DNA of 24,000 nucleotides from Nitrospirota bacterium (lineage in GTDB: Bacteria; Nitrospirota; Thermodesulfovibrionia; Thermodesulfovibrionales; UBA6898), in NCBI GenBank assembly GCA_016217675.1, contig JACRHC010000072.1:1742-25741 (forward strand), given 5' to 3'. Both the position numbers and the translations under genes were made by a program. The notes beneath the pieces were generated by a model. That model saw only the letters and a list, made by a program, of their open reading frames with translations, did no database searches and was not told where the DNA came from. Shown here in pieces: positions 5,980 through 24,000 of the stretch. How positions within the stretch are numbered: the stretch's first letter is position 1; each line of letters begins with the position of its first letter.

Positions 5980-6011
5980 ACTGCAAAATGCAATGACACT
6001 GCAAAATGCAA
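5980..6011 (-). promoter_or_regulatory. direct-repeat pair, candidate enhancer (UAS) for a sigma-54 activator
   Basis: The 14-nt unit ACTGCAAAATGCAA occurs twice (5980..5993 and 5998..6011, 18-bp period). Each unit contains two TGCAA half-sites 7 bp apart. The pair lies ~90-120 bp upstream of the -24 box and directly after the stop of the activator gene at 6033. Confidence 0.4.
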
Positions 6012-6032
6012 GGTAACAAAGAAAGAGACGGA

Positions 6033-7370
6033 CTATTCCAGATCGTACTTCTTCAGTTTTCTCCAGAGTGTGGTGACATCAATGCCCAGAGCCTCAGCTG
6101 CCCTGTTTTTTTGTCCATCAAGAAGCCTCAGGGTTCTCTGGATAAGAAATTTCTCCATTTCATCGATCGTCATAAGCCCTATATGAGAAAGGGGATCATG
6201 AAGCTCCTTTTCCATATCAGGAGGAAGTGAATGGACAGTGATCATTGCTGACTGCTCCATAATCACCGCCCTTTCTACTGCGTTTTCAAGCTCCCTGACA
6301 TTGCCGGGCCACGGGTAGGCATTGAATACCTCTAATACTTCAGTAGCGAATGCCCGGATTTCCTTGGTGAATTTCTTTCCGTATTTATTCAGAAAGTGAT
6401 ACGCAAGCAGCGGGATGTCATCTTTTCGGTCTCTGAGTGACGGGATGGCCAGCACAACCACATTCAGCCGGTAGAAGAGGTCTTTTCTGAACCTGCTGTC
6501 AGCCACTTCTTTCTGAAGATCGGCATTAGAGGCTGCTACTATCCTGACATTTACCGGTATGGGCCTCGCAGCGCCGACCCTCATGATAGTCTGCTCCTGA
6601 AGCACACGCAGGAGCTTTACCTGCATTGCAGGCGACGTTGCATTGATCTCATCGAGAAAGATCGTACCCTTGCTTGCTGTTTCGAAAAGCCCCTTCTTTT
6701 CAGCAACCGCACCGGTAAAGGCGCCCTTTTCGTGGCCGAAAAGTTCTGACTCAAGGAGTGTTTCCGAAAGGGCTCCGCAATTTACAGGCAGAAACAGATT
6801 GCCGGATCTTGAGCTCTGCCTGTGGATCAGCCGTGCGATCAGCTCCTTGCCTGTGCCTGTTTCCCCCTGTATCAGGATGGTCGTGTCAAGTGGTGCGACC
6901 TTGTCGATAAGCTGCCTGACCGACATCATGCCCTGGCTCGAACCGATGATATCATCCTCCTGATAGCTTCTGACCTCTGCTGACAACCTTCTGTTTTCGT
7001 CCAGCAGATCATGGTGCTCAAGAGCCCTCTTTACCAGGAGCAGGAGATGGTCCGGATCAAAGGGCTTCTGAATATAGTCGTACGCCCCCTTTCTGATGGC
7101 CTCTATTGCAGACTCTACTGTGCCATGGGCTGTGACCATGACCACCAGTGCTTCAGGGTTTATATCTTTTGCATAGGCAAGTACTTCGAGGCCGCTTACA
7201 TGGGGCATTTTGAGGTCTGTGATAACAATATCAAAGGCCCTCTCTTTCAGCATCATAAGGGCCTCTCTTCCGTCACCCGTTGAATAGACAGTAAATCCCT
7301 CTGTCCTGAGCAGTTCTTCTATCAGTTGCCGCATTCTCAGGTCGTCGTCAACAACGAGTATCTCAGCCAT
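6033..7370 (-). CDS. sigma-54-dependent response regulator (NtrC/AtoC type)
   Basis: Track ORF 6033..7436. I place the start at ATG 7370..7368 (MAEILVVDDD...), which overlaps the kinase stop by 8 nt exactly as in the other cassette. Motifs: receiver (VITDLKMPHVSG), Walker A GETGTGKE, HEKGAFTGA, and C-terminal HTH GQKNRAAEALGIDVTTLWRKLKKY. Confidence 0.92.
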   Translation of the reverse strand: MAEILVVDDDLRMRQLIEELLRTEGFTVYSTGDGREALMMLKERAFDIVITDLKMPHVSGLEVLAYAKDINPEALVVMVTAHGTVESAIEAIRKGAYDYIQKPFDPDHLLLLVKRALEHHDLLDENRRLSAEVRSYQEDDIIGSSQGMMSVRQLIDKVAPLDTTILIQGETGTGKELIARLIHRQSSRSGNLFLPVNCGALSETLLESELFGHEKGAFTGAVAEKKGLFETASKGTIFLDEINATSPAMQVKLLRVLQEQTIMRVGAARPIPVNVRIVAASNADLQKEVADSRFRKDLFYRLNVVVLAIPSLRDRKDDIPLLAYHFLNKYGKKFTKEIRAFATEVLEVFNAYPWPGNVRELENAVERAVIMEQSAMITVHSLPPDMEKELHDPLSHIGLMTIDEMEKFLIQRTLRLLDGQKNRAAEALGIDVTTLWRKLKKYDLE

Positions 7371-9084
7371 GGTTCTCCTTTTCTGATGGCAGCCTGACAA
7401 TGAATGTTGCTCCTTCCCCAATCCGGCTCTCAACATTAATTGTTCCGTTATGGTCCCTTATGATACCGAGACAGATCGAAAGGCCGAGGCCTGTGCCCTT
7501 GCCGACCGGCTTTGTAGTGTAAAAAGGGTCGAATATTTTACACTGCAACTCTTCTGTGATGCCCGGCCCGGTATCTTTCACCCTGATCTCCACATTTCCG
7601 GATGCAGTCTGCCCGGTTGTGACTCTCACTGCCCCGGAGGTATCTATCGCCTGCATCGCATTTAAAACAAGATTAAAGATGACCTGCTCGATCTGGCGCG
7701 GATCAGCCTGTATATACGGGATATCTGCAAGCTCCTGTTCAATGCCGATCCCGCTCTTTTGAGCCTGAGGGGAAAGGAGCCGGACCACATTTTCAATTAT
7801 GGCATTAAGAGATACTGATTCCCTTATTGAGATAGACTGGCGTGAAAAGTCGAGCAGACCCTGAACGACAGAGCTGCCCTTTCTGGCCTGCTCCGCAATT
7901 ATCTCAAGTTTTTCTCTCTGGACGTTACTGAGGGAGTTGTCTTTCAGCAGAAGTCTTGCATAGCCTAACACGTTGCCGAGCGGGTTGTTTATCTCATGGG
8001 CAAGGCCTGCAGACATCTGTCCGATCGCAGCAAGTTTCTCTGCCTGACAGAGCATACCCTGCTGTTGTTTATCATCAGTAATGTCCCTGAAGGTCTGAAC
8101 TCCGCCCAGGGTGCGGCCGTCGCTGTCCCGGATAATGGCGGAGCTTACTGACACGATCCTGCGTCTGCCGTCCTTTGTGATGATCTCTGTCTCCTTGTTC
8201 CTGATCGTCTTGTCCTCATTATGCAGGGCGCAGGCATCGGCGCATAGCCTTGTTTTAAAAACTTCTTCGCAATGCATTCCGAGGACCTCCTGCTCCTTAT
8301 AGCCTGAGATGTACTCGGCAGAGTTGTTGAAGGAGACGATAAGCCCGTCGCTGTTGCTCACAAAAAGACCGTCAGCCAGACTCTGGACAATGGTCTCAAG
8401 CTTGATCTTCTCTGTCTGTATATCTTTCCGGCCTTTCATAAGGTCATTAAAATTCGCATCAAGGGAGGCAGCCATATCATTAAAGGCCGCAGCCAATTCT
8501 TCGAACTCATTTCCTGCATCAAGAATAATACGGTCCTTCAGATTCCCCTCTTTTATTGTCCTTGTGCCTCCGATAAGCGCGGTAATAGGGCATATGAGCA
8601 GGGAGTTGACAATGGCATTGTTTAGCACAAGACCTATAATATGTACGGCAAGAATAAAGACAACCGCTGATATGATGATATTCCGCGAAAGCGCGTTGAC
8701 CCTTGTCATGGCAAAGGATACTTCAACCTTGCCGAGTCCGGACCCGCCTATCTCGATAGGGTAGCTCACCTTCATGGCATCCGGCCCTTCTTTGCCTTCT
8801 TTTGCCTCCGCCAGTACCTCTCCGTCGTCACGCACGATCCTGAGAGAGACAATATCCTTTTCCTCTGCAACCTGCCGGACATAACGCTCCATGGTGCCAT
8901 AGTCATGAGTGAGCATGGCATCCATCGTTACGGTTGAAAGCACCCGTGCTATTGATTCACCCTTGTCCTTCATATCCTCAAGAAGGACCTCACGTCCTTT
9001 ATATATTATGACCGAGATCAGGACCAGGGCAGATATTGTCAGGATCACGCTCAGCCGTTTATAAAAGTCGCTCTTCAGGCTCAT
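7363..9084 (-). CDS. membrane sensor histidine kinase (short periplasmic domain, HAMP, PAS, HisKA, HATPase)
   Basis: 573-aa ORF. TM helices are LSVILTISALVLISVIIY and IIISAVVFILAVHIIGLVL. A HAMP-like segment (EFEELAAAFNDMAASL) and a PAS-like segment (LADGLFVSNSDGLIVSFNNSAEYISGY) follow. The H-box is SAGLAHEINNPLGNV, with DTGPGI and GTGLGL boxes. Confidence 0.9.
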   Translation of the reverse strand: MSLKSDFYKRLSVILTISALVLISVIIYKGREVLLEDMKDKGESIARVLSTVTMDAMLTHDYGTMERYVRQVAEEKDIVSLRIVRDDGEVLAEAKEGKEGPDAMKVSYPIEIGGSGLGKVEVSFAMTRVNALSRNIIISAVVFILAVHIIGLVLNNAIVNSLLICPITALIGGTRTIKEGNLKDRIILDAGNEFEELAAAFNDMAASLDANFNDLMKGRKDIQTEKIKLETIVQSLADGLFVSNSDGLIVSFNNSAEYISGYKEQEVLGMHCEEVFKTRLCADACALHNEDKTIRNKETEIITKDGRRRIVSVSSAIIRDSDGRTLGGVQTFRDITDDKQQQGMLCQAEKLAAIGQMSAGLAHEINNPLGNVLGYARLLLKDNSLSNVQREKLEIIAEQARKGSSVVQGLLDFSRQSISIRESVSLNAIIENVVRLLSPQAQKSGIGIEQELADIPYIQADPRQIEQVIFNLVLNAMQAIDTSGAVRVTTGQTASGNVEIRVKDTGPGITEELQCKIFDPFYTTKPVGKGTGLGLSICLGIIRDHNGTINVESRIGEGATFIVRLPSEKENHG

Positions 9085-9089
9085 GCTGC

Positions 9090-9917
9090 TTACCTGTCCT
9101 CCACGAAATTGACTATATCACGGGCCTGCCTGAAATCATTGTCAGATACAGTCCCGAAACTCTCAAGCGCAGGATCAACACCTTGAAGCACGCGCCTGTC
9201 TTTAATCCCCATAAGAGCAGTCCTGATCTTTGATTTCAGTCCGGCGGGCAGTTTATTACTGCAGACGATCACGTGAGGCGGGATCGCATAAGGCCCGGCA
9301 ATGACCTTGATAGGTCTGTCTCGGTATTTTTCATAGATATCCTCCCGGACCCCACCTGCGTCGAAGTCTTTGTGCGAAACTGCAAGAACCACCTTCGAAT
9401 GGCTGCCTAAAAAGTCATAGGATTTCAGGTCCTTCAGCTTTACGCCTTCCCTGTTCAGGAGATAGCGGGGATAAAAATGGCTGCCATAGGACTGAAAATC
9501 TCCAAAGGCAAAGGTCTTGCCCCTGAGGTCCTTCAGATTTCTGATGCCGCTGTCTTTGTGCGCTATGATGACAAGCCTGTCGTTTTTATTGTCCCGCATG
9601 ACCAGCCGCGAGATAAGTTCCACACCGCCGTATTTGTCCTTTGCCCTGATATAGGGAGATGGGCCCATGAAACCGAGATCTACCCGTCCCTGGCCGATAT
9701 TAATTATGTGGGACATATAATTTGGCGCAATAACGATCTTTACCGGAATGCCGATCACTTTTGAGAGGTGTTTTAGCAGCGGCTCAAAGCTCTGATATAT
9801 CTGCGTCGGTGTGTCATATGGATATATACCAAAGGAAAGTTGTGCGGGCTCTGCGGCAAGGGCAGAGGTCAGAAACAGTTGCATGACAAAAATTACTGAC
9901 ACAAAAAGCTTATTCAT
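9090..9917 (-). CDS. periplasmic PhnD-like (phosphonate/phosphite-type) substrate-binding protein, orphan (no transporter genes), probable co-sensor
   Basis: 275-aa ORF with signal peptide MNKLFVSVIFVMQLFLTSALA. LSFGIYPYDTP...VDLGFMGPSPYI...GKTFAFGDFQSYGSHFYPRYLL resembles the PhnD family as I remember it. SD AAGGAG is upstream. The kinase starts 6 nt downstream. Confidence 0.7.
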   Translation of the reverse strand: MNKLFVSVIFVMQLFLTSALAAEPAQLSFGIYPYDTPTQIYQSFEPLLKHLSKVIGIPVKIVIAPNYMSHIINIGQGRVDLGFMGPSPYIRAKDKYGGVELISRLVMRDNKNDRLVIIAHKDSGIRNLKDLRGKTFAFGDFQSYGSHFYPRYLLNREGVKLKDLKSYDFLGSHSKVVLAVSHKDFDAGGVREDIYEKYRDRPIKVIAGPYAIPPHVIVCSNKLPAGLKSKIRTALMGIKDRRVLQGVDPALESFGTVSDNDFRQARDIVNFVEDR

Positions 9918-10058
9918 TCACAATCTCCTTGCAATCTGCATGCCCGCAGACGTTTTCAGCATAGAAAACATCTTTTGCGGCACTTTCGCATGTCATGCGG
10001 GAAACCAAATATTTGGAATTAATACCAGGCATCCGGAAATCACAGGACAAAGCTGTTG

Positions 10059-10940
10059 TTAAGAGGTCTTTTTTCCTTTTTTATCAATGTACATCAGATT
10101 GTCAGCCTCCTTCAGCGTCAGAACGAAATCGTCGCCCTTCTTCCAAGTGGAGCAGCCTACGCTTAGAGAAAGGCTGAACCCCTCGTAGGAATTATGCTGA
10201 GCATTCCATTTTTCGACCGCGCCGAGGAGCCTCAGTTTTACTGCTTCTGCCAGCTCACAGTCAGTATGGGGAAGGACTATAAGGAACTCGTCACCACCAT
10301 AGCGGAACAACAGATCTGACTGGCGGATATTATATTCTATTAATTTCGCAGTCTCGACAAGGACGAGGTCTCCTGCCTGGTGGCCGTATTTGTCGTTCAA
10401 TAACTTGAACATGTCGAGGTCCACCATTATGAATGATGCGATCTCCTCATACCGCTCCGATTTGGCCAGGAAATTATTGATATACTCGTTAAAATAGGTT
10501 CTGTTGTAGGCATTTGTAAGAGAGTCTCTTATGGCCATGTTGACGATCTTTTCATCCCTGTTTTTAAGGTGATGTATAAGGATGTTTATATTTTCATAGA
10601 GCATGCGAATCTGGTCTGACTCTATCTGTTTCATTACATCGCATTCAAAACAGCTTCTGTATTTCCTCGCAAAATCCCCCTGTACAGATCCACCGCAATG
10701 CGTTCCAACACGAAGCCAGCATCTGCAGTCAGCGTCTCTGAAAGAAGGGCATAACTCATTGCTGCAATTCTTGATTTCCCAGCATCTGATCCTGTTGAAA
10801 CCAAAATCAAAGGCCGTCCACTTCTCCCAGAACGATTCAGAATTCAGGGAGTGTTCAAGAAAAGCCCTCAGTTCCCTGTTGATAGCAGGAAGATACCCCT
10901 GATAAAGCTTGTCGTCTGTTTCCATCAAGTTCTTTTCCAT
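10059..10940 (-). CDS. diguanylate cyclase: N-terminal Cys-rich 'two-CW'-like domain + GGDEF domain with I-site
   Basis: 293-aa ORF. The N-terminal domain reads CWEIKNCSNELCPSFRDADCRCWLRVGTHCGGSVQGDFARKYRSCFECD. The GGDEF domain has an intact RYGGDEF, and RQSD (RxxD) sits 5 residues upstream. Confidence 0.85.
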   Translation of the reverse strand: MEKNLMETDDKLYQGYLPAINRELRAFLEHSLNSESFWEKWTAFDFGFNRIRCWEIKNCSNELCPSFRDADCRCWLRVGTHCGGSVQGDFARKYRSCFECDVMKQIESDQIRMLYENINILIHHLKNRDEKIVNMAIRDSLTNAYNRTYFNEYINNFLAKSERYEEIASFIMVDLDMFKLLNDKYGHQAGDLVLVETAKLIEYNIRQSDLLFRYGGDEFLIVLPHTDCELAEAVKLRLLGAVEKWNAQHNSYEGFSLSLSVGCSTWKKGDDFVLTLKEADNLMYIDKKGKKTS

Positions 10941-11016
10941 AATAGTTCCTTTAAATTTTATAAGTAAAAAACAATTAATGGACTGAATTTATTGCGACTC
11001 ATCCCGCAGTCCGATA

Positions 11017-11940
11017 TTAAGAAAAAGGGGCCTCAGGCATCTGAAGTCTTTCCATGATTTCGATAACTGAAAGCAGGCTGTGTTTACAATCCGCAGACAA
11101 GTCCTGAAATTCGAGCCCGCTAAAACAGAATTTCTCTGTTATGCCGGTTTTCTTTACAGTACAATCAATATCTTTAAAGCATTTATCCAGGAAAGAAAAA
11201 GACAGTTTGAAAACCCTGTCTGGTCTTATCTGGTGAGCAGCCCGATCGGACACCTTGAGCCTGCAACCACCTTCGCCCAGGTCAACTGTCAGGGCATTAA
11301 TTGAGCAGTCTTCACCGTCTGCTGCGGTCAGCGTCGATTCCAGTCTGGTCACATATCTCCGGTGCTTTCTCAGGGATATCTTATCCACGGACAGCGGATA
11401 CCGGAAAAAAGCCAGAGGCAGTGGAAATGATTGCACTGCCACGAGGTCAGAATCGAAGATATATGCATCTCCATCCTTGATGTATTTCAGACCATATCTT
11501 CCTTTGCCGAACGGAAGACCGTTAATATAGGGCAACTGGGTTATCAGGTATTCATTGACTTTCCAGCCGGTCAGGTAGCTTAACGACTCTTCCTGCCTGC
11601 CTGTCTTTATGAGAATAGGTAAGCCCACATGGAATACCCTGTTGTGGAGGCTGTCCATGATCTCCTTTGAGGTCTGGAAATTCAGGCCTTCTTCGGAGAC
11701 TACCTGTCTGTAGCATTCACATTCAAGGCAGTTTTTGACCTTTGCTGCAAAGGTCCCCTGCACTACGCCGCCGCAGAAGGTGCCTGCAACCGGCCAGCAG
11801 GCCCTGCCAGCGTACTTCCCGTCATGCATGCCATCGAGTCGTTCCTCTTTTGCAACAGGACAGACACCGAGTTCATTGATTCTCGCTCCATCAGTCTCTC
11901 GCCCGCATTTCTTGATCTCCCAGCAGTTGAGCTTTGTCAT
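11017..11940 (-). CDS. c-di-GMP receptor candidate: Cys-rich 'two-CW'-like domain + YcgR-like (PilZN + PilZ) region
   Basis: 307-aa ORF. The N-terminus reads NCWEIKKCGRE...GVCPV...GRACWPVAGTFCGGVVQGTFAAKVKNCLECEC. The C-terminal part has RKHRR (RxxxR) and DLGEGG (D-x-S/G-x-x-G), the PilZ signature. The preceding VGLPILIKTG...GDAYIFDSDLV resembles a YcgR N-domain. The gene starts 13 nt after the kinase stop. Confidence 0.65.
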   Translation of the reverse strand: MTKLNCWEIKKCGRETDGARINELGVCPVAKEERLDGMHDGKYAGRACWPVAGTFCGGVVQGTFAAKVKNCLECECYRQVVSEEGLNFQTSKEIMDSLHNRVFHVGLPILIKTGRQEESLSYLTGWKVNEYLITQLPYINGLPFGKGRYGLKYIKDGDAYIFDSDLVAVQSFPLPLAFFRYPLSVDKISLRKHRRYVTRLESTLTAADGEDCSINALTVDLGEGGCRLKVSDRAAHQIRPDRVFKLSFSFLDKCFKDIDCTVKKTGITEKFCFSGLEFQDLSADCKHSLLSVIEIMERLQMPEAPFS

Positions 11941-11953
11941 ATCGCAGTCACGA

Positions 11954-13885
11954 TCACCTGTCCAACACCTCCCTGATCTTTTTCAAAAGGTCATTTGGCA
12001 ATACCGGCTTCTGAATGAACTCCGGCCCTTTTTCAAAGACTCCCCTGTCCTGAATAAGGTCTCTCGCATAGCCGCTTAAAAATATTGCCTTTATATCCTG
12101 CCACATACCCCTGATATCTTCGTAGGCATCCTTTCCGTTTTTCTTCGGCATTATCACATCCAGCAGCAGAAGTTGAATGTGGTCCTTATTATCCCTGAAT
12201 TTGTTCACAGCGTCCTCGCCGTCCACAGCCTCGATCACGGCATACCCTGATCCGGCAAGTATCTGGCTGATGAGCGTTCTTACCGTAGGGTCATCTTCTG
12301 CCAGAAGTATTGTCTCTGTGCCCCTGCTTGTTGCTGCGGGCTCTCCTTTCTCTTCCTTTCCCTCAGCTGGTGAAGCGATGGGAAGATAAAGCATGAACGA
12401 GGTCCCCTGTCCAGGTTCACTGAGACAGTCTAAAAAACCTTTATGCTGTTTGACAATGCCAAACACTATTGAGAGGCCAAGTCCGGTGCCTTTGCCGACT
12501 TCCTTGGTCGTAAAATAGGGCTCAAATATCCTCTGTCTGGTCGCATCGTCTATTCCTGTTCCGGTGTCTGACACAGAGATCAATACATATCTTCCGGGCT
12601 CGCCAAAACTGTGTTTCTTGATGAAACGGCTGTCCATGTTAATGCTTCCGGTCTGTATGGTCAGAACGCCTCCATGGGGCATAGCATCCCGCGCATTCGC
12701 TGCAAGATTCATCAGGACCTGCTCGATCTGCCCCGGGTCTGCATTGATCATCATATCCTCTTCTGCAGGTATTATCCTCAGCTCAATGTCCTCTCCGAGG
12801 ATCCGTTCTATCATCTTCTTGAAGTCGGCAATAATGCTGCAGACATTCACGGGTTTCAATTCCATTACCTGTTTCCGGCTGAAGGCAAGGAGTCCTCTGG
12901 TAAGCTGGGCAGCCCTGTTTCCTGCGTCAAGTATCGCTTTCAGATGCTCTGATGAGGCCCCATCTTTTTTTATCTGCCTCTGCATAAGGTCTCCATAACC
13001 TATAATGACACTAAGCAGGTTGTTGAAGTCATGGGCAATGCCGCCTGCAAGCGTGCCGATCGCCTCCATCTTCTGGGCATGTCTGAGCTGCTCTTCGAGC
13101 CTCCTCATCTCCGTGATATTGTTCAGAGTCTCGATGACCGCAGTCACCCTGCCGGCCTCATCCTTTATGGGATATGATCTTGTCTCAATATAGAGATGCT
13201 TGCCATCACTGTCATAGTGTGTATGAATGGCAAGGGAAGGAGCACCTGTCTTAAAAGTGCGAGAAGGAGCGCATTCCTCGCCGTTCCAAAAACACGGTTT
13301 GTCCAGATGATGAGAAACCTCGAAGCAGTGTTTTCCTGTTATGTTTTCGACATGGCACTTCACCTGTCTGCAATATGCCCTGTTCGCCGAGATGATCCGG
13401 AATTCAGGGTCGATTATAATAAACCCCTCGTCTATACTTTCGAGGATGTTCCTCATGAAAGACTCGCTTTTCTTCAGTGCAGAATCAGTTCTTTCCAACT
13501 CCATGAGGGATTGCCTGAGAGACTCCGCAGTTTTTTCTTCTTCAGTTATGTCCCGCAATACTTCGATCATCCGGATTACTCTGCCATCAGAATCTGCTAT
13601 CGGAGACGCCGAGATACTGAATACTTTGGACTGGCCGTCACTGCAATAGTGTGTGTGTTTTAACACAATAGGTCTTCCGGTCGAAAAAACCTCCTTATGA
13701 GGGCATTCCTCAGGTAAAGAACAGGGCGTGGGACAATGATGAGAGATCTCATGGCAGTTTTTGCCTGTTATATCTTCACCACTTACACCACAGAGATGAA
13801 GAGCCGCCTCATTGGCAAAGACTACTTTAAAGTCTTTATCAATTATCAGCATGTAGTCAGTAATGCTATTGAGAATGTCTCTCAT
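11954..13885 (-). CDS. soluble hybrid histidine kinase: two Cys/His-rich PAS domains + HisKA + HATPase + C-terminal receiver
   Basis: 643-aa ORF with no TM segment. PAS1 carries [24 protein letters not shown]2 carries [22 protein letters not shown]. The H-box is [15 protein letters not shown], with DTGTGI and GTGLGL boxes. The receiver reads ILLAEDDP...[13 protein letters not shown]. Confidence 0.9.
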
Positions 13886-21930: not shown

Positions 21931-22746
21931 TTAACCATTATTATGTTTACCCGTCCGAAATCCCAATTTCATTGCATGCTCACTGCATACATCCATGCAT
22001 TTCGCGCAATTCGTGCATTCACCTGAGGTGACAAAACTGCTTGCTATCCCCACCATCGGAAGCACCTGCTGCTCAGGGCAGTGTTCGATGCACTGCATAC
22101 AATGCGTACAGTTATCCTTCAGGTGCCGCACCCGGATGAAACTGAACTTTCCTGCAAGCGAATAGAAGGCCCCCAACGGACAGACATGGCCGCAGAATCC
22201 ATACTGCACCAAGAGCAGATCAAAAAGAAATACTGCGACGATGGCTGTCCACCCGGCTCCCATACCAAAAATGAGCCCGCGATGAAGGGTCGAGATCGGG
22301 CTGATCCACTCAAAGGCTGCTATGCCGAGCACGGCTGAAAGCACGAGTGCAAGCCCGGCCGCCCAGTACCTGACATTCCGGTCCATGCGCAACGATATGC
22401 CTGCCTTTGCCGGCAGAACTCTTCTCAGCCTGTTGGCAAGGTCGGTGATCATATTCATCGGACAGACCCAGCTGCAGAATGCCCGGCCGCCGACAACAGC
22501 AAAAAATACAAAGATGAGAGCGCCCCCGATAAGGGCTTCGCGCGACGCAATATTGCCGGTCGCAGTCATCTGAAGCAGGGCAAACGGATCTGTCAGAGGA
22601 ACAACATCGAGAAGCCGGGAAGTGCTGAGATTGCCCCTCAAAACCTTCCATCCGTACAGATTGCCTCCGATGAAAAGGGCAAGGATCGAGATCTGCGAGA
22701 GTCTCCGCAATATCAGATAGCGGTTTCTATACATAAAATCTCGCAT
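21931..22746 (-). CDS. napH: NapH, membrane quinol-dehydrogenase subunit (4 TM + Fe-S)
   Basis: Motifs CSWVCP and CGHVCP lie at membrane-proximal positions. The C-terminal ferredoxin motifs are CTHCMQCIEHCP and CTNCAKCMDVC. Confidence 0.85.
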   Translation of the reverse strand: MRDFMYRNRYLILRRLSQISILALFIGGNLYGWKVLRGNLSTSRLLDVVPLTDPFALLQMTATGNIASREALIGGALIFVFFAVVGGRAFCSWVCPMNMITDLANRLRRVLPAKAGISLRMDRNVRYWAAGLALVLSAVLGIAAFEWISPISTLHRGLIFGMGAGWTAIVAVFLFDLLLVQYGFCGHVCPLGAFYSLAGKFSFIRVRHLKDNCTHCMQCIEHCPEQQVLPMVGIASSFVTSGECTNCAKCMDVCSEHAMKLGFRTGKHNNG

Positions 22747-22747
22747 C

Positions 22748-23560
22748 TCAGAACCCGTCCTTATTCAGATATTCAAGGGCAGACTTCTCACTTCTCGGCG
22801 TCACGGTCTTGGTCTCCTCTGAAACATCCTCGATCCTCTGCTCGTCCTTCTCATCCCAGCCGCGCACATACCGATCGCTCGACTCTCCCAATGCAAGGTG
22901 CAGGGGGAGGACAAATATGGATGCCTTCTTCGTAACGCATGCCCTCTCGCATGCGCCGCAGCCTGTACAATGATCACTATGCACGACCGGAGCAAGAATT
23001 GCATGTTTGCCGGTCCGGTCATTAGCGGTCCTTTCAACGGTGAGCGCCTTGTCTATTACCGGACAGACCCGATAGCAGGCATCACACTGGATACCCCAGT
23101 ATGCAATGCAGGTCTCCCGGTCAATGACCGCCAATCCTATCTTTGCAAGGTTGATATTAAGCTTGTCCCTGCCCCGCTCATCCTTATCTCTCATCAGTGA
23201 ACTGTCAAGAGCCCCGGTGGGGCAGGCAACTGCGCAGGGAATGTCCCGGCACATTTTACAGGGATTTTCGCGCATTATGAAATAGGGTGTACCGACAGGC
23301 CGTTCGTCGCCCGGTTTGGCAATGACAAGTGCCTTATACGGGCAGGCCTCGGCACAGAGGCCGCACTTGGTGCACAGAGCGAGAAACTTCTCCTCCTTCA
23401 CAGCGCCTGGCGGCCTCAGTACCGTAGGATATGCCTTCTTGCCGTCAAGAAATCCTGCCCAGGCCAAGCCGCCCACAGCGGCTGCACCTGCGCCTCTAAA
23501 CAGGTCTGCGAGAAACTGTCTTCTCTCAGGCATCTTCTCTGATCCCTCCGGTGCAGTCAT
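22748..23560 (-). CDS. napG: NapG, Tat-exported poly-ferredoxin subunit
   Basis: Twin-arginine signal PERRQFLADLFRGAGAAAVGGLAWA. There are four Cys clusters: CTKCGLCAEACP, CKMCRDIPCAVACP, CDACYRVCP and CTGCGACERAC. Met at 23533 is an alternative start. Confidence 0.85.
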   Translation of the reverse strand: MTAPEGSEKMPERRQFLADLFRGAGAAAVGGLAWAGFLDGKKAYPTVLRPPGAVKEEKFLALCTKCGLCAEACPYKALVIAKPGDERPVGTPYFIMRENPCKMCRDIPCAVACPTGALDSSLMRDKDERGRDKLNINLAKIGLAVIDRETCIAYWGIQCDACYRVCPVIDKALTVERTANDRTGKHAILAPVVHSDHCTGCGACERACVTKKASIFVLPLHLALGESSDRYVRGWDEKDEQRIEDVSEETKTVTPRSEKSALEYLNKDGF

Positions 23561-23571
23561 CTGCGTTCTTA

Positions 23572-24000
23572 TCAGGCTTTATACACTTTTACAGCGCACT
23601 TCTTGTAGTCAGGCTCCTTCGAGATCGGGCATGTCGCATCAAGTGTCACCTTGTTGATGAATACATGCTCATCAAAGAACGGAACAAAGATAAGACCTTT
23701 AGGGGGCAGATTTCTGCCTCTGGTCTCGACCCTGGCCTTCACCTTGCCTCTTCTGGATTCAATCCATATAAGTTCTCCGTCCTTCACGCCGCCCTTCTGC
23801 GCATCCTGGGGATGCATGAAGCAGAGCGCCTCAGGAACAGCCCGATACAGCTCGGGCACCCGCATGGTCATGGTGCCGGTATGCCAATGCTCAAGTACCC
23901 TGCCAGTGCAGAGCCAGAAGGGATATTCACTGCTCGGATTTTCCGGCGGCTCGATGTAATGGCGCAGAAATATCTTCGCCTTATTCGGGAGCTTCACCTT
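23572..24000 (-). CDS. napA: NapA, periplasmic nitrate reductase catalytic subunit, C-terminal ~142 codons (5' end beyond the right edge)
   Basis: ...[41 protein letters not shown]...[49 protein letters not shown] is the molybdopterin-binding C-terminal domain typical of NapA. The frame stays open to base 24000. Confidence 0.85.

Follow-up and report, generated by a model that had tools for sequence, protein, structure and literature searches.

Results

A cyclase gene and a receptor gene behind a hybrid kinase

In a stretch of 24,000 nucleotides from a Nitrospirota bacterium (assembly GCA_016217675.1, contig JACRHC010000072.1; hereafter 'the window', meaning this whole stretch), two neighbouring genes encode a predicted diguanylate cyclase, which would synthesize cyclic di-guanosine monophosphate (c-di-GMP), and a predicted PilZ-type receptor of the same nucleotide. 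Both proteins begin with a Cys-rich region, and our analysis establishes securely, from sequence comparison, that the two regions represent one homologous domain, which NCBI calls 'two-CW'. Together with a kinase gene, the two genes form a co-oriented signalling trio in the order listed here.

11954..13885, minus strand: hybrid histidine kinase of 643 residues, PAS-PAS-HisKA-HATPase_c-REC (Pfam)
11017..11940, minus strand: gene of 307 codons for long two-CW, PilZN and PilZ domains (open reading frame, NF045718, PF07238)
10059..10940, minus strand: gene of 293 codons for short two-CW and GGDEF domains, a predicted soluble diguanylate cyclase (open reading frame, PF00990, TIGR00254)

The original prediction had placed both open reading frames (ORFs) on the minus strand at exactly these coordinates, and it had correctly read a spacing of 13 nucleotides (window 11941..11953) between the stop of the co-oriented PAS hybrid kinase and the start of the 307-residue ORF. 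The gap between the 307- and the 293-residue ORF measures 76 nucleotides, and an AGGA ribosome-binding site precedes the latter. Since promoter and terminator scans yielded hits at the chance level of shuffled sequence and were not used, operon structure is deduced from spacing and orientation, which suggest that the kinase, PilZ and GGDEF genes probably constitute one transcription unit.

One homologous domain at both N-termini

11677..11940, minus strand: long-form two-CW domain, residues 1 to ~88 of the PilZ protein (hmmalign with 190 family members)
10617..10784, minus strand: short-form two-CW domain, residues 53 to ~108 of the GGDEF protein (NF045718, 30.4 bits; hhalign against the long form)

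The cysteine pattern that had been described for the two N-termini was found where it had been reported in both proteins. The PilZ protein carries C6(W7), C12, C27, C48(W49), C56, C71 and C74, the GGDEF protein C53(W54), C59, C64, C74(W75), C82, C97 and C100, and their spacing (short/long form) is C-x5-C-x4/14-C-x9/20-C-x7-C-x14-C-x2-C. Across the 190 members aligned with hmmalign, the Cys at positions 6, 12, 27, 48, 56, 71 and 74 and the Trp following Cys6 and Cys48 are invariant; the GGDEF protein possesses all seven family Cys and both Trp, and differs only in the shorter loops between Cys2 and Cys3 and between Cys3 and Cys4. In a direct BLASTP comparison (E=1e-13), residues 48-110 of the cyclase align with residues 1-84 of the receptor at 33% identity and with a single gap of 21 residues.

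The NCBIfam model NF045718 (two_CW_domain; curated cut-off 35 bits) matches the PilZ protein with 100.6 bits (residues 4-82, model positions 1-79 of 80), so that the name given in the original prediction was the right one; the GGDEF protein scores 30.4 bits (E=3.7e-7, residues 52-108) and thus falls under the cut-off. The GGDEF copy is nonetheless to be regarded as homologous because of the profile-profile match (hhalign, 99.5% probability, E=3.5e-22) between a 132-sequence alignment of the long form and a 23-sequence alignment of ~300-residue short-form cyclases, the core common to both forms being CWE.K.C...CP...CW..AGT.CGG.VQG.FA.K...C..C. Hence, the shared pattern does align as one domain, and of the claim that both proteins carry the 'same' domain, the homology and the seven Cys stand, while the GGDEF copy turns out to be a shortened, sub-threshold variant. 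NF045718 itself describes only the long, mostly stand-alone form, of which the PilZ protein is a clear member; it does not reach the short form lying in line in kinases and cyclases, and it has no function, structure or paper attached.

A predicted, intact diguanylate cyclase

10068..10535, minus strand: GGDEF catalytic domain, residues 136-291 (Pfam alignment, 1-159 of 161 positions)
10298..10284, minus strand: GGDEF motif, residues 215-219 (sequence reading)
10325..10314, minus strand: RQSD I-site (R206-Q-S-D209, then LLFRY-GGDEF), five residues upstream of GGDEF
10536..10616, minus strand: helical linker from short two-CW to GGDEF, about residues 109-135, 'YENINILIHHLKNRDEKIVNMAIRD' (subfamily alignment)

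An N-terminal helix, the short two-CW domain, a coiled coil and the GGDEF domain follow each other in the 293-residue protein, with GGDEF scores well documented by PF00990 (134.1 bits; cut-off 23.8) and TIGR00254 (140.5 bits; cut-off 37.4). The metal/GTP-binding positions are present (D-L-D..F-K..N-D, GH..GD, R213), and R206, D209, R213, G215 and G216 are among the residues invariant in the 23-member cyclase subfamily. Judged by its sequence, the protein is an intact diguanylate cyclase with a feedback I-site, as had been predicted and as Pfam, TIGR00254 and the motif reading bear out, and it is an ordinary member of a sizeable family of ~300-residue proteins in which GG(D/E)EF is invariant or nearly so. 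The linker segment 'LYENI..LI..L' is conserved in the subfamily and leads into the GGDEF start 'D.LT..YNR'; the corresponding position in kinases is that preceding HisKA.

A predicted receptor of the YcgR/PlzD type

11395..11628, minus strand: PilZN/PilZNR-like beta-barrel, residues ~105-182 (PF12945 below cut-off; AlphaFold2; Foldseek)
11074..11373, minus strand: PilZ domain, residues 190-289 (PF07238, 31.0 bits versus a cut-off of 22.5)
11370..11356, minus strand: RKHRR (RxxxR), R191-R195, aligned with RKEPR of VCA0042
11283..11266, minus strand: DLGEGG, D220-G225, aligned with DLSRSG of VCA0042

When a profile of the five proteins sharing the two-CW-PilZN-PilZ architecture was compared with PDB sequences, VCA0042/PlzD was the best match (E=7e-8), followed more weakly by PP4397 and YcgR. 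The full-length AlphaFold2 (AF2) model contains two beta-barrels with predicted local distance difference test (pLDDT) values of 70-86; it was built from a 5-sequence alignment in which the two-CW part reaches a pLDDT of ~30, and the PilZN-PilZ half alone was used. Foldseek relates this two-barrel model to PlzD, MotI/DgrA, PP4397, YcgR and MrkH at probability 1.0, and the matches to PlzD, MotI, PP4397 and YcgR extend over 213-229 columns. Based on the profile match to VCA0042 and these fold matches, the 307-residue protein is a predicted c-di-GMP receptor of the YcgR/PlzD type with an added N-terminal domain. The 'YcgR-like PilZN+PilZ receptor' of the original prediction is thus supported by fold and PilZ score, but the PilZNR model PF12945 stays below its cut-off (18.1 bits versus 23; PilZNR is listed for the orthologues P0122-P0125), and DLGEGG departs from DxSxxG at the Ser. 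The architecture as a whole is rare, occurring in only five protein clusters, that is, the window's own and P0122-P0125.

The second PilZ motif deserves separate consideration. The canonical (D/N)xSxxG is not matched in that Gly replaces Ser, while the Asp and the last Gly are kept; the 79%-identical relative (locus L003) has DLGKGG, and the three more distant orthologues retain the Ser (DLSMEG, DISEDG, NVSEGG). This Ser is one of three motif residues that touch the base and ribose of c-di-GMP (PMC7288161). The exchange, viewed together with its absence from the distant orthologues and with the modest Pfam score of the PilZ domain (31 bits), might indicate that c-di-GMP binding was abolished or greatly weakened, and that the protein now serves as a c-di-GMP-independent adaptor driven solely by its two-CW domain, without any writer-reader relation to the cyclase. 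We consider such a degenerate receptor improbable: RxxxR, Asp and final Gly are intact, the PilZ domain scores above the Pfam cut-off, a cyclase gene adjoins, and PilZ families with an altered second motif have been reported still to bind c-di-GMP (bioRxiv 10.1101/2020.02.11.943704). With Asp and last Gly intact, binding of c-di-GMP by the 307-residue protein is possible.

Fold of the two-CW domain

From a deep alignment, AF2 yielded a model of the long-form two-CW domain with a mean pLDDT of 90.8 and a predicted template modelling score (pTM) of 0.77. The modelled domain is loop-rich, with short helices at residues 6-10, 21-24, 65-73 and 75-87. In Foldseek searches of 350,542 PDB chains and of BFVD no similar fold appeared (lowest E values 9.3 and 8.2, respectively), the family profile found no relative among PDB sequences (best E=4.1), and Pfam-A contains no family matching the N-terminus of either protein at E<=0.1, including no zf family and no Fer4. 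Two-CW is a single homologous family whose members span ~50-90 residues, are rich in loops and share seven invariant Cys as well as two Cys-Trp pairs; its modelled fold is not represented in the PDB. A known zinc ribbon, zinc finger or Fe-S (iron-sulphur) fold was rejected for lack of a match in Pfam, PDB sequences, PDB folds and BFVD folds, and a ferredoxin-type 4Fe-4S identity was rejected in view of the missing Fer4 match and a Cys spacing other than CxxCxxCxxxCP. Our literature search, which covered NF045718 as well as Cys-rich PilZ, GGDEF and kinase fusions, located no paper on the domain; a heliorhodopsin preprint mentioning seven-Cys extensions proved unrelated. The earlier belief that the function of two-CW is uncharacterised agrees with the lack of a Pfam model, of a solved or fold-similar protein and of a paper, and the possibility raised along with it, that the domain is a characterised zinc ribbon, found no support in the Foldseek, PDB-profile and Pfam searches.

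Two-CW as a signalling input module

In most cases the long form makes up a protein of ~100 residues by itself, and all 120 listed best matches measure 87-143 residues. The 64 longer proteins comprise fusions to PP2C/SpoIIE (26), Ser/Thr kinase plus cNMP-binding (18), cNMP-binding (4) and CheW (2) domains, one case each of STAS, HATPase_c, class III nucleotidyl cyclase, PAS_7, epimerase and rubrerythrin, and 8 proteins without any Pfam domain. Two-CW occupies the N-terminus in all of these fusions except that with rubrerythrin (P0126, 265 residues, JGI metagenome), in which it is C-terminal (residues 167-263). Through this only non-N-terminal case, two-CW is linked with a protein that serves anaerobes under oxidative stress.

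For the short form, phmmer with residues 1-135 of the cyclase retrieved 885 clusters (50% identity) at E<=1e-3 and 209 at E<=1e-10; all ten of the clusters examined are metagenomic. The compact pattern CWE.K.C....CP.Y......RCW..AGT.CGG.VQG.FA.K...C..C is present in 127 of the 150 best matches. Among 149 short-form proteins scanned we found HisKA (73), GGDEF (38), REC (33), HAMP (30) and MCPsignal (6) domains, and further Cache, GAF, HD-GYP-type HD and EAL domains, and the usual place of the short two-CW is just ahead of the helix that enters HisKA or GGDEF. This census of the domain and its partners, which had been proposed along with the original prediction, reveals that fusion partners are nearly all signalling outputs, in line with what a sensor or input domain would show.

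When one genome of each GTDB species was scanned for the pattern, at least 568 long-form loci were identified, of which the best 80 underlie all host-lineage and neighbour counts given here. These are dominated by Thermodesulfovibrionia and other Nitrospirota, Desulfobacterota, Planctomycetota, Spirochaetes, Omnitrophota, Peptococcaceae, Methanoregula and Methanospirillum. The data thus show two-CW to be a widespread signalling input module, chiefly of anaerobic bacteria and methanogens, with a bias that is not absolute, as a minority of loci are labelled Nitrospira, Acidobacteriota or Terriglobia.

Clustering of the 320 ORFs neighbouring stand-alone two-CW genes in the 80 loci returned only the generic PAS/histidine kinase/REC class (25 loci), which we did not treat as significant. 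A general linkage of two-CW to c-di-GMP genes was considered and rejected: a GGDEF neighbour occurs in 7 of the 80 loci (796 kb), about the rough chance estimate, and none of the 80 has a PilZ or short-form neighbour next to its long-form gene. Tandem pairs of long forms were seen in six loci (L037, L080, L058, L026, L012 and L047; for example 5989-6294 and 6294-6614 in L058), so that tandem paralogy recurs in the family.

The same survey bears on the idea that two-CW is not a sensor but a docking module, an interaction knot held together by structural Zn. Long forms, mostly free proteins, would attach to the short forms built into kinases and cyclases, and in the window the PilZ receptor would thus be anchored to its cyclase, possibly to the kinase as well. 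Most long forms stand alone without a conserved neighbour and would have to act in trans, the conserved core is common to both forms in its entirety, the loop-rich fold resembles small metal-knit domains, and the window holds one form of each kind. Yet long and short forms do not co-occur in the 80 reference loci, the in-line site ahead of the HisKA or GGDEF helix is the classic place of sensors such as PAS, GAF and HAMP, and the anaerobe bias is hard to square with a purely structural Zn module. On balance, we find docking rather improbable.

The pairing in related genomes

9986..10982, minus strand: single-gene indel of 997 nucleotides, comprising the GGDEF gene with 42 nucleotides upstream and 73 nucleotides downstream (blastn against L003)

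The closest comparison is provided by the syntenic, 80%-identical locus L003, where the kinase (81% identical), the two-CW-PilZ gene (79%) and a PhnD-like gene (~86%) follow each other in this order and the GGDEF gene is absent. According to the blastn breakpoints (L003 2572-3529 equals window 11940-10983; L003 3544-3997 equals window 9985-9532), L003 has 14 nucleotides in place of the 997. A GC content of 0.43 at 10001-11000 had suggested a foreign origin of the cyclase gene, which was rejected because its GC content at third codon positions (0.551) equals that of its neighbours and no flanking repeat was noticed; for the same reasons insertion and deletion are not distinguishable. From the stop of the kinase gene to the start of two-CW-PilZ there are 13 nucleotides in the window versus 74 in L003 (2498..2571), and tight coupling of these two genes is thus not conserved.

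In L006, a C-terminal fragment of the kinase (57-70% identical) is followed directly by a short-two-CW cyclase (64-66% identical, frameshifted in the assembly), with no PilZ gene at the locus. Across three lineages, then, one or the other two-CW gene follows the same hybrid kinase, two-CW-PilZ in two of them (window, L003) and short-two-CW-GGDEF likewise in two (window, L006). In L007, a 69%-identical cyclase orthologue adjoins a phosphatidylserine decarboxylase gene; this protein (P0190, 58..738) has suffered an in-frame loss of 74 GGDEF residues, equivalent to 133-206 and including the metal/GTP-binding part, and it keeps the two-CW module and the GGDEF motif, so that it probably represents a dead cyclase. 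In L002, the two-CW-PilZ orthologue stands alone between a TetR/efflux cluster and MgtC. In L004, finally, the two-CW-PilZ orthologue starts 1 nucleotide after a gene encoding GAF and GGDEF domains (GGEEF, RxxD), which is not a two-CW cyclase. A cyclase has therefore come to abut this rare receptor at least twice, with different cyclase sensors, and the arrangement in L004 supports the view that cyclase and receptor act as a local pair.

A two-CW cyclase and a two-CW PilZ protein side by side were encountered only in this window among the loci compared. The two-gene 'system' of the original prediction is hence not conserved as such, since there is no GGDEF gene in L003 and no PilZ gene in L006, and since the receptor is paired with a GAF-GGDEF protein in L004; the pairing is a combination, specific to the lineage, of two two-CW genes that are mobile independently of each other, and not an obligate conserved system.

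These comparisons also bear on a rival view, in which the two genes are independent neighbours: signalling and two-CW genes would gather at a kinase-linked spot, the cyclase would feed a global pool of c-di-GMP, the PilZ protein would read any pool, and the shared domain would reflect how common two-CW is in the organism and not a joint input. The indel in L003, the cyclase orthologues in other contexts in L006 and L007 and the solitary receptor gene of L002 are what one would expect, as are the multiple and often clustered copies of two-CW genes (the tandems in six of 80 loci; four to five in 9 kb of L006) and the density of signalling genes in the window, with its three kinases and a sigma-54 regulator. 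Independence accounts less readily for the recurrence of the same hybrid kinase upstream of either two-CW gene in three lineages, and for the cyclase lying 1 nucleotide from the receptor in L004, which means that adjacency arose at least twice for a receptor type with only five clusters. Overall, we deem mere neighbourhood somewhat unlikely.

The two-CW genes of L006 (1..9041; ENA ERZ25039512 contig_25073) were found interspersed with PAS kinases and a response regulator. The four to five two-CW-type ORFs are the short-two-CW cyclase at 616-1399 (split by the frameshift), a frameshifted long form at 1507-1863, a 65-residue mini form with seven Cys at 2587-2784 and a stand-alone long form at 7889-8227. 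The mini form suggests a third size class outside the NCBIfam model.

Other genes of the window

Both PAS domains of the hybrid kinase contain Cys/His-rich inserts (residues ~41-63 and 180-205), of which three Cys and a His are kept in the L003 orthologue, and a second kinase (7363..9084, minus strand) has a similar Cys/His stretch, 'GMHCEEVFKTRLCADACALH'. All of these stretches may be further metal/redox sites in the cluster. Although the structures nearest to the first PAS domain are light-oxygen-voltage (LOV) domains, a LOV photoreceptor was rejected since NCHEIS replaces the flavin signature NCRFLQ.

Downstream of the cyclase (6033..9917, minus strand), genes for a PhnD-like periplasmic binding protein, a HAMP-PAS histidine kinase and a sigma-54 response regulator look like a binding-protein-dependent two-component system; no ATP-binding-cassette transporter genes adjoin the PhnD-like gene. 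The regulator ORF (6033..7436) overlaps the kinase by 74 nucleotides, and its real start is probably Met23 at 7370. The range 18306..23997 (minus strand) contains a periplasmic nitrate reductase cluster with the C-terminus of NapA (23997..23572), NapG- and NapH-like ferredoxins, NapB (21923..21363) and NapD (21366..21034), and beside it an arsenic-resistance set consisting of an ArsP-type permease (20973..20023), ArsR (19765..19394) and ACR3/SBF (19403..18306). Elsewhere the window encodes thioredoxin, a DsbD-like protein, an extracytoplasmic-function (ECF) sigma factor and two rhodaneses. No flagellar genes are present in the 24-kb window.

Discussion

All features described in the original prediction were thus confirmed at their coordinates, and its interpretation is supported in part. 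Taken together, the locus is best explained as a kinase-linked cluster in which one two-CW domain would gate a cyclase and another would gate or target a receptor, brought together by a lineage-specific pairing; we assign this explanation a probability of roughly 0.45. A sensor role would be in keeping with the N-terminal or in-line position of two-CW, with its loop-rich fold and its seven invariant Cys unaccompanied by His, and with its Cys-Pro motif, its rubrerythrin fusion and its bias towards anaerobes. The seven Cys would then hold a metal centre. The last three features, together with the lack of His, lead us to favour Fe-S over Zn for it, and the state of this centre (its oxidation, loss or ligand) would constitute the signal. 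In the cyclase, a change of state might be relayed by 'YENI..LI..L' to the dimer, altering how its linker helices pack and thereby switching c-di-GMP synthesis. The receptor would read c-di-GMP through RxxxR/DxGxxG, its own two-CW domain either gating it or targeting it to a partner, so that output would require both the nucleotide and the right state of the cofactor, in a coincidence or feed-forward arrangement. It is tempting to go further and to view two-CW as an unrecognised cluster-binding fold, probably of the Fe-S kind (for example, a 4-Cys plus a 3-Cys site), that gates c-di-GMP synthesis and reception here; in this specific form the proposal is tentative and, in our judgement, possible if doubtful.

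Several observations weigh against the proposed gating of a paired cyclase and receptor. (i) The GGDEF gene is missing from L003, the PilZ gene from the kinase/short-two-CW-GGDEF locus of L006, and any partner from L002. (ii) Across the reference loci, GGDEF neighbours are about as frequent as expected by chance, and PilZ and short-form neighbours do not occur. (iii) The two domains of the window are 33% identical, belong to different subfamilies with different usual architectures and, as far as their sequences tell, may sense different things, so that a 'same input' for both proteins is only an assumption. (iv) The receptor departs from the canonical second PilZ motif. (v) Neither the promoter nor the terminator scan rose above chance. 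(vi) The anaerobe bias has its exceptions, and a metal/redox role is what we infer for two-CW, a structural Zn site being an alternative possibility.

The cluster joins parts of familiar types, namely a GGDEF cyclase, a YcgR-type receptor and a hybrid kinase, to an essentially unstudied domain that NCBIfam has catalogued by name only. In DgcZ, with its zinc-binding CZB domain, and in DosC, with its haem globin, an N-terminal cofactor sensor controls the geometry of the GGDEF dimer. The window cyclase likewise combines a small N-terminal sensor-like domain, for which a cofactor is presumed, with an RxxD I-site; two-CW shares neither fold nor ligands with the CZB four-helix bundle and its His3Cys Zn site, or with DosC, which uses haem. 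In FNR, the PAS domain of NreB, WhiB-like proteins and NsrR, the integrity of a Cys-bound Fe-S cluster reports O2, nitric oxide or redox state. Two-CW is unrelated to these in sequence and fold, and has seven Cys versus their three to four.

The receptor shares with YcgR, PlzD (VCA0042), MotI (DgrA) and FlgZ-PP4397 the two-barrel PilZN+PilZ body and the RxxxR switch between the barrels, and differs from them in its extra seven-Cys N-terminal domain of ~90 residues, its DxGxxG motif and its sub-cut-off PilZNR. Because the 24-kb window contains no flagellar genes, the motor-brake role of the YcgR family cannot be assumed for it. YcgR variants with added domains, namely YcgR-GAZ of Leptospira and YcgR-NpzN, have been treated as new subfamilies; there, too, a YcgR scaffold gains a sensor-like domain, and the c-di-GMP motifs are kept (PMC11800159). 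Their added domains are of other kinds: GAZ, which is GAF-like, is inserted within PilZ, and NpzN forms a pentahelical subdomain at the N-terminus (PMC11800159). Both lack the Cys richness of two-CW and any relation to it. Neither the two-CW-PilZN-PilZ architecture nor the breadth of the short in-line form appears to have been described, and we found no description in the literature of a receptor carrying a sensor from the very domain family of the neighbouring cyclase.

Circuits of c-di-GMP are known to use many sensor domains, and if the same kind of sensor indeed gates both synthesis and reception, the cluster would represent a coincidence detector of a type undescribed for such circuits. 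The chief value of our findings lies, however, in the two-CW family more than in the gene pair. The domain sits at the input of hundreds to thousands of protein clusters in anaerobic bacteria and methanogenic archaea, on hosts as diverse as kinases, cyclases, phosphatases, Ser/Thr kinases, CheW and STAS proteins and chemoreceptors, and, if the proposed role is true, it would rank among the most widespread unstudied sensor modules for redox state, O2 or metals in anaerobes and methanogens. For experiments, the window provides a compact pair of proteins, a soluble 293-residue cyclase that has an easy enzymatic read-out and a 307-residue receptor. Knowledge of the cofactor and the signal would annotate many 'orphan' signalling proteins of sulfate reducers, Nitrospirota and methanogens.

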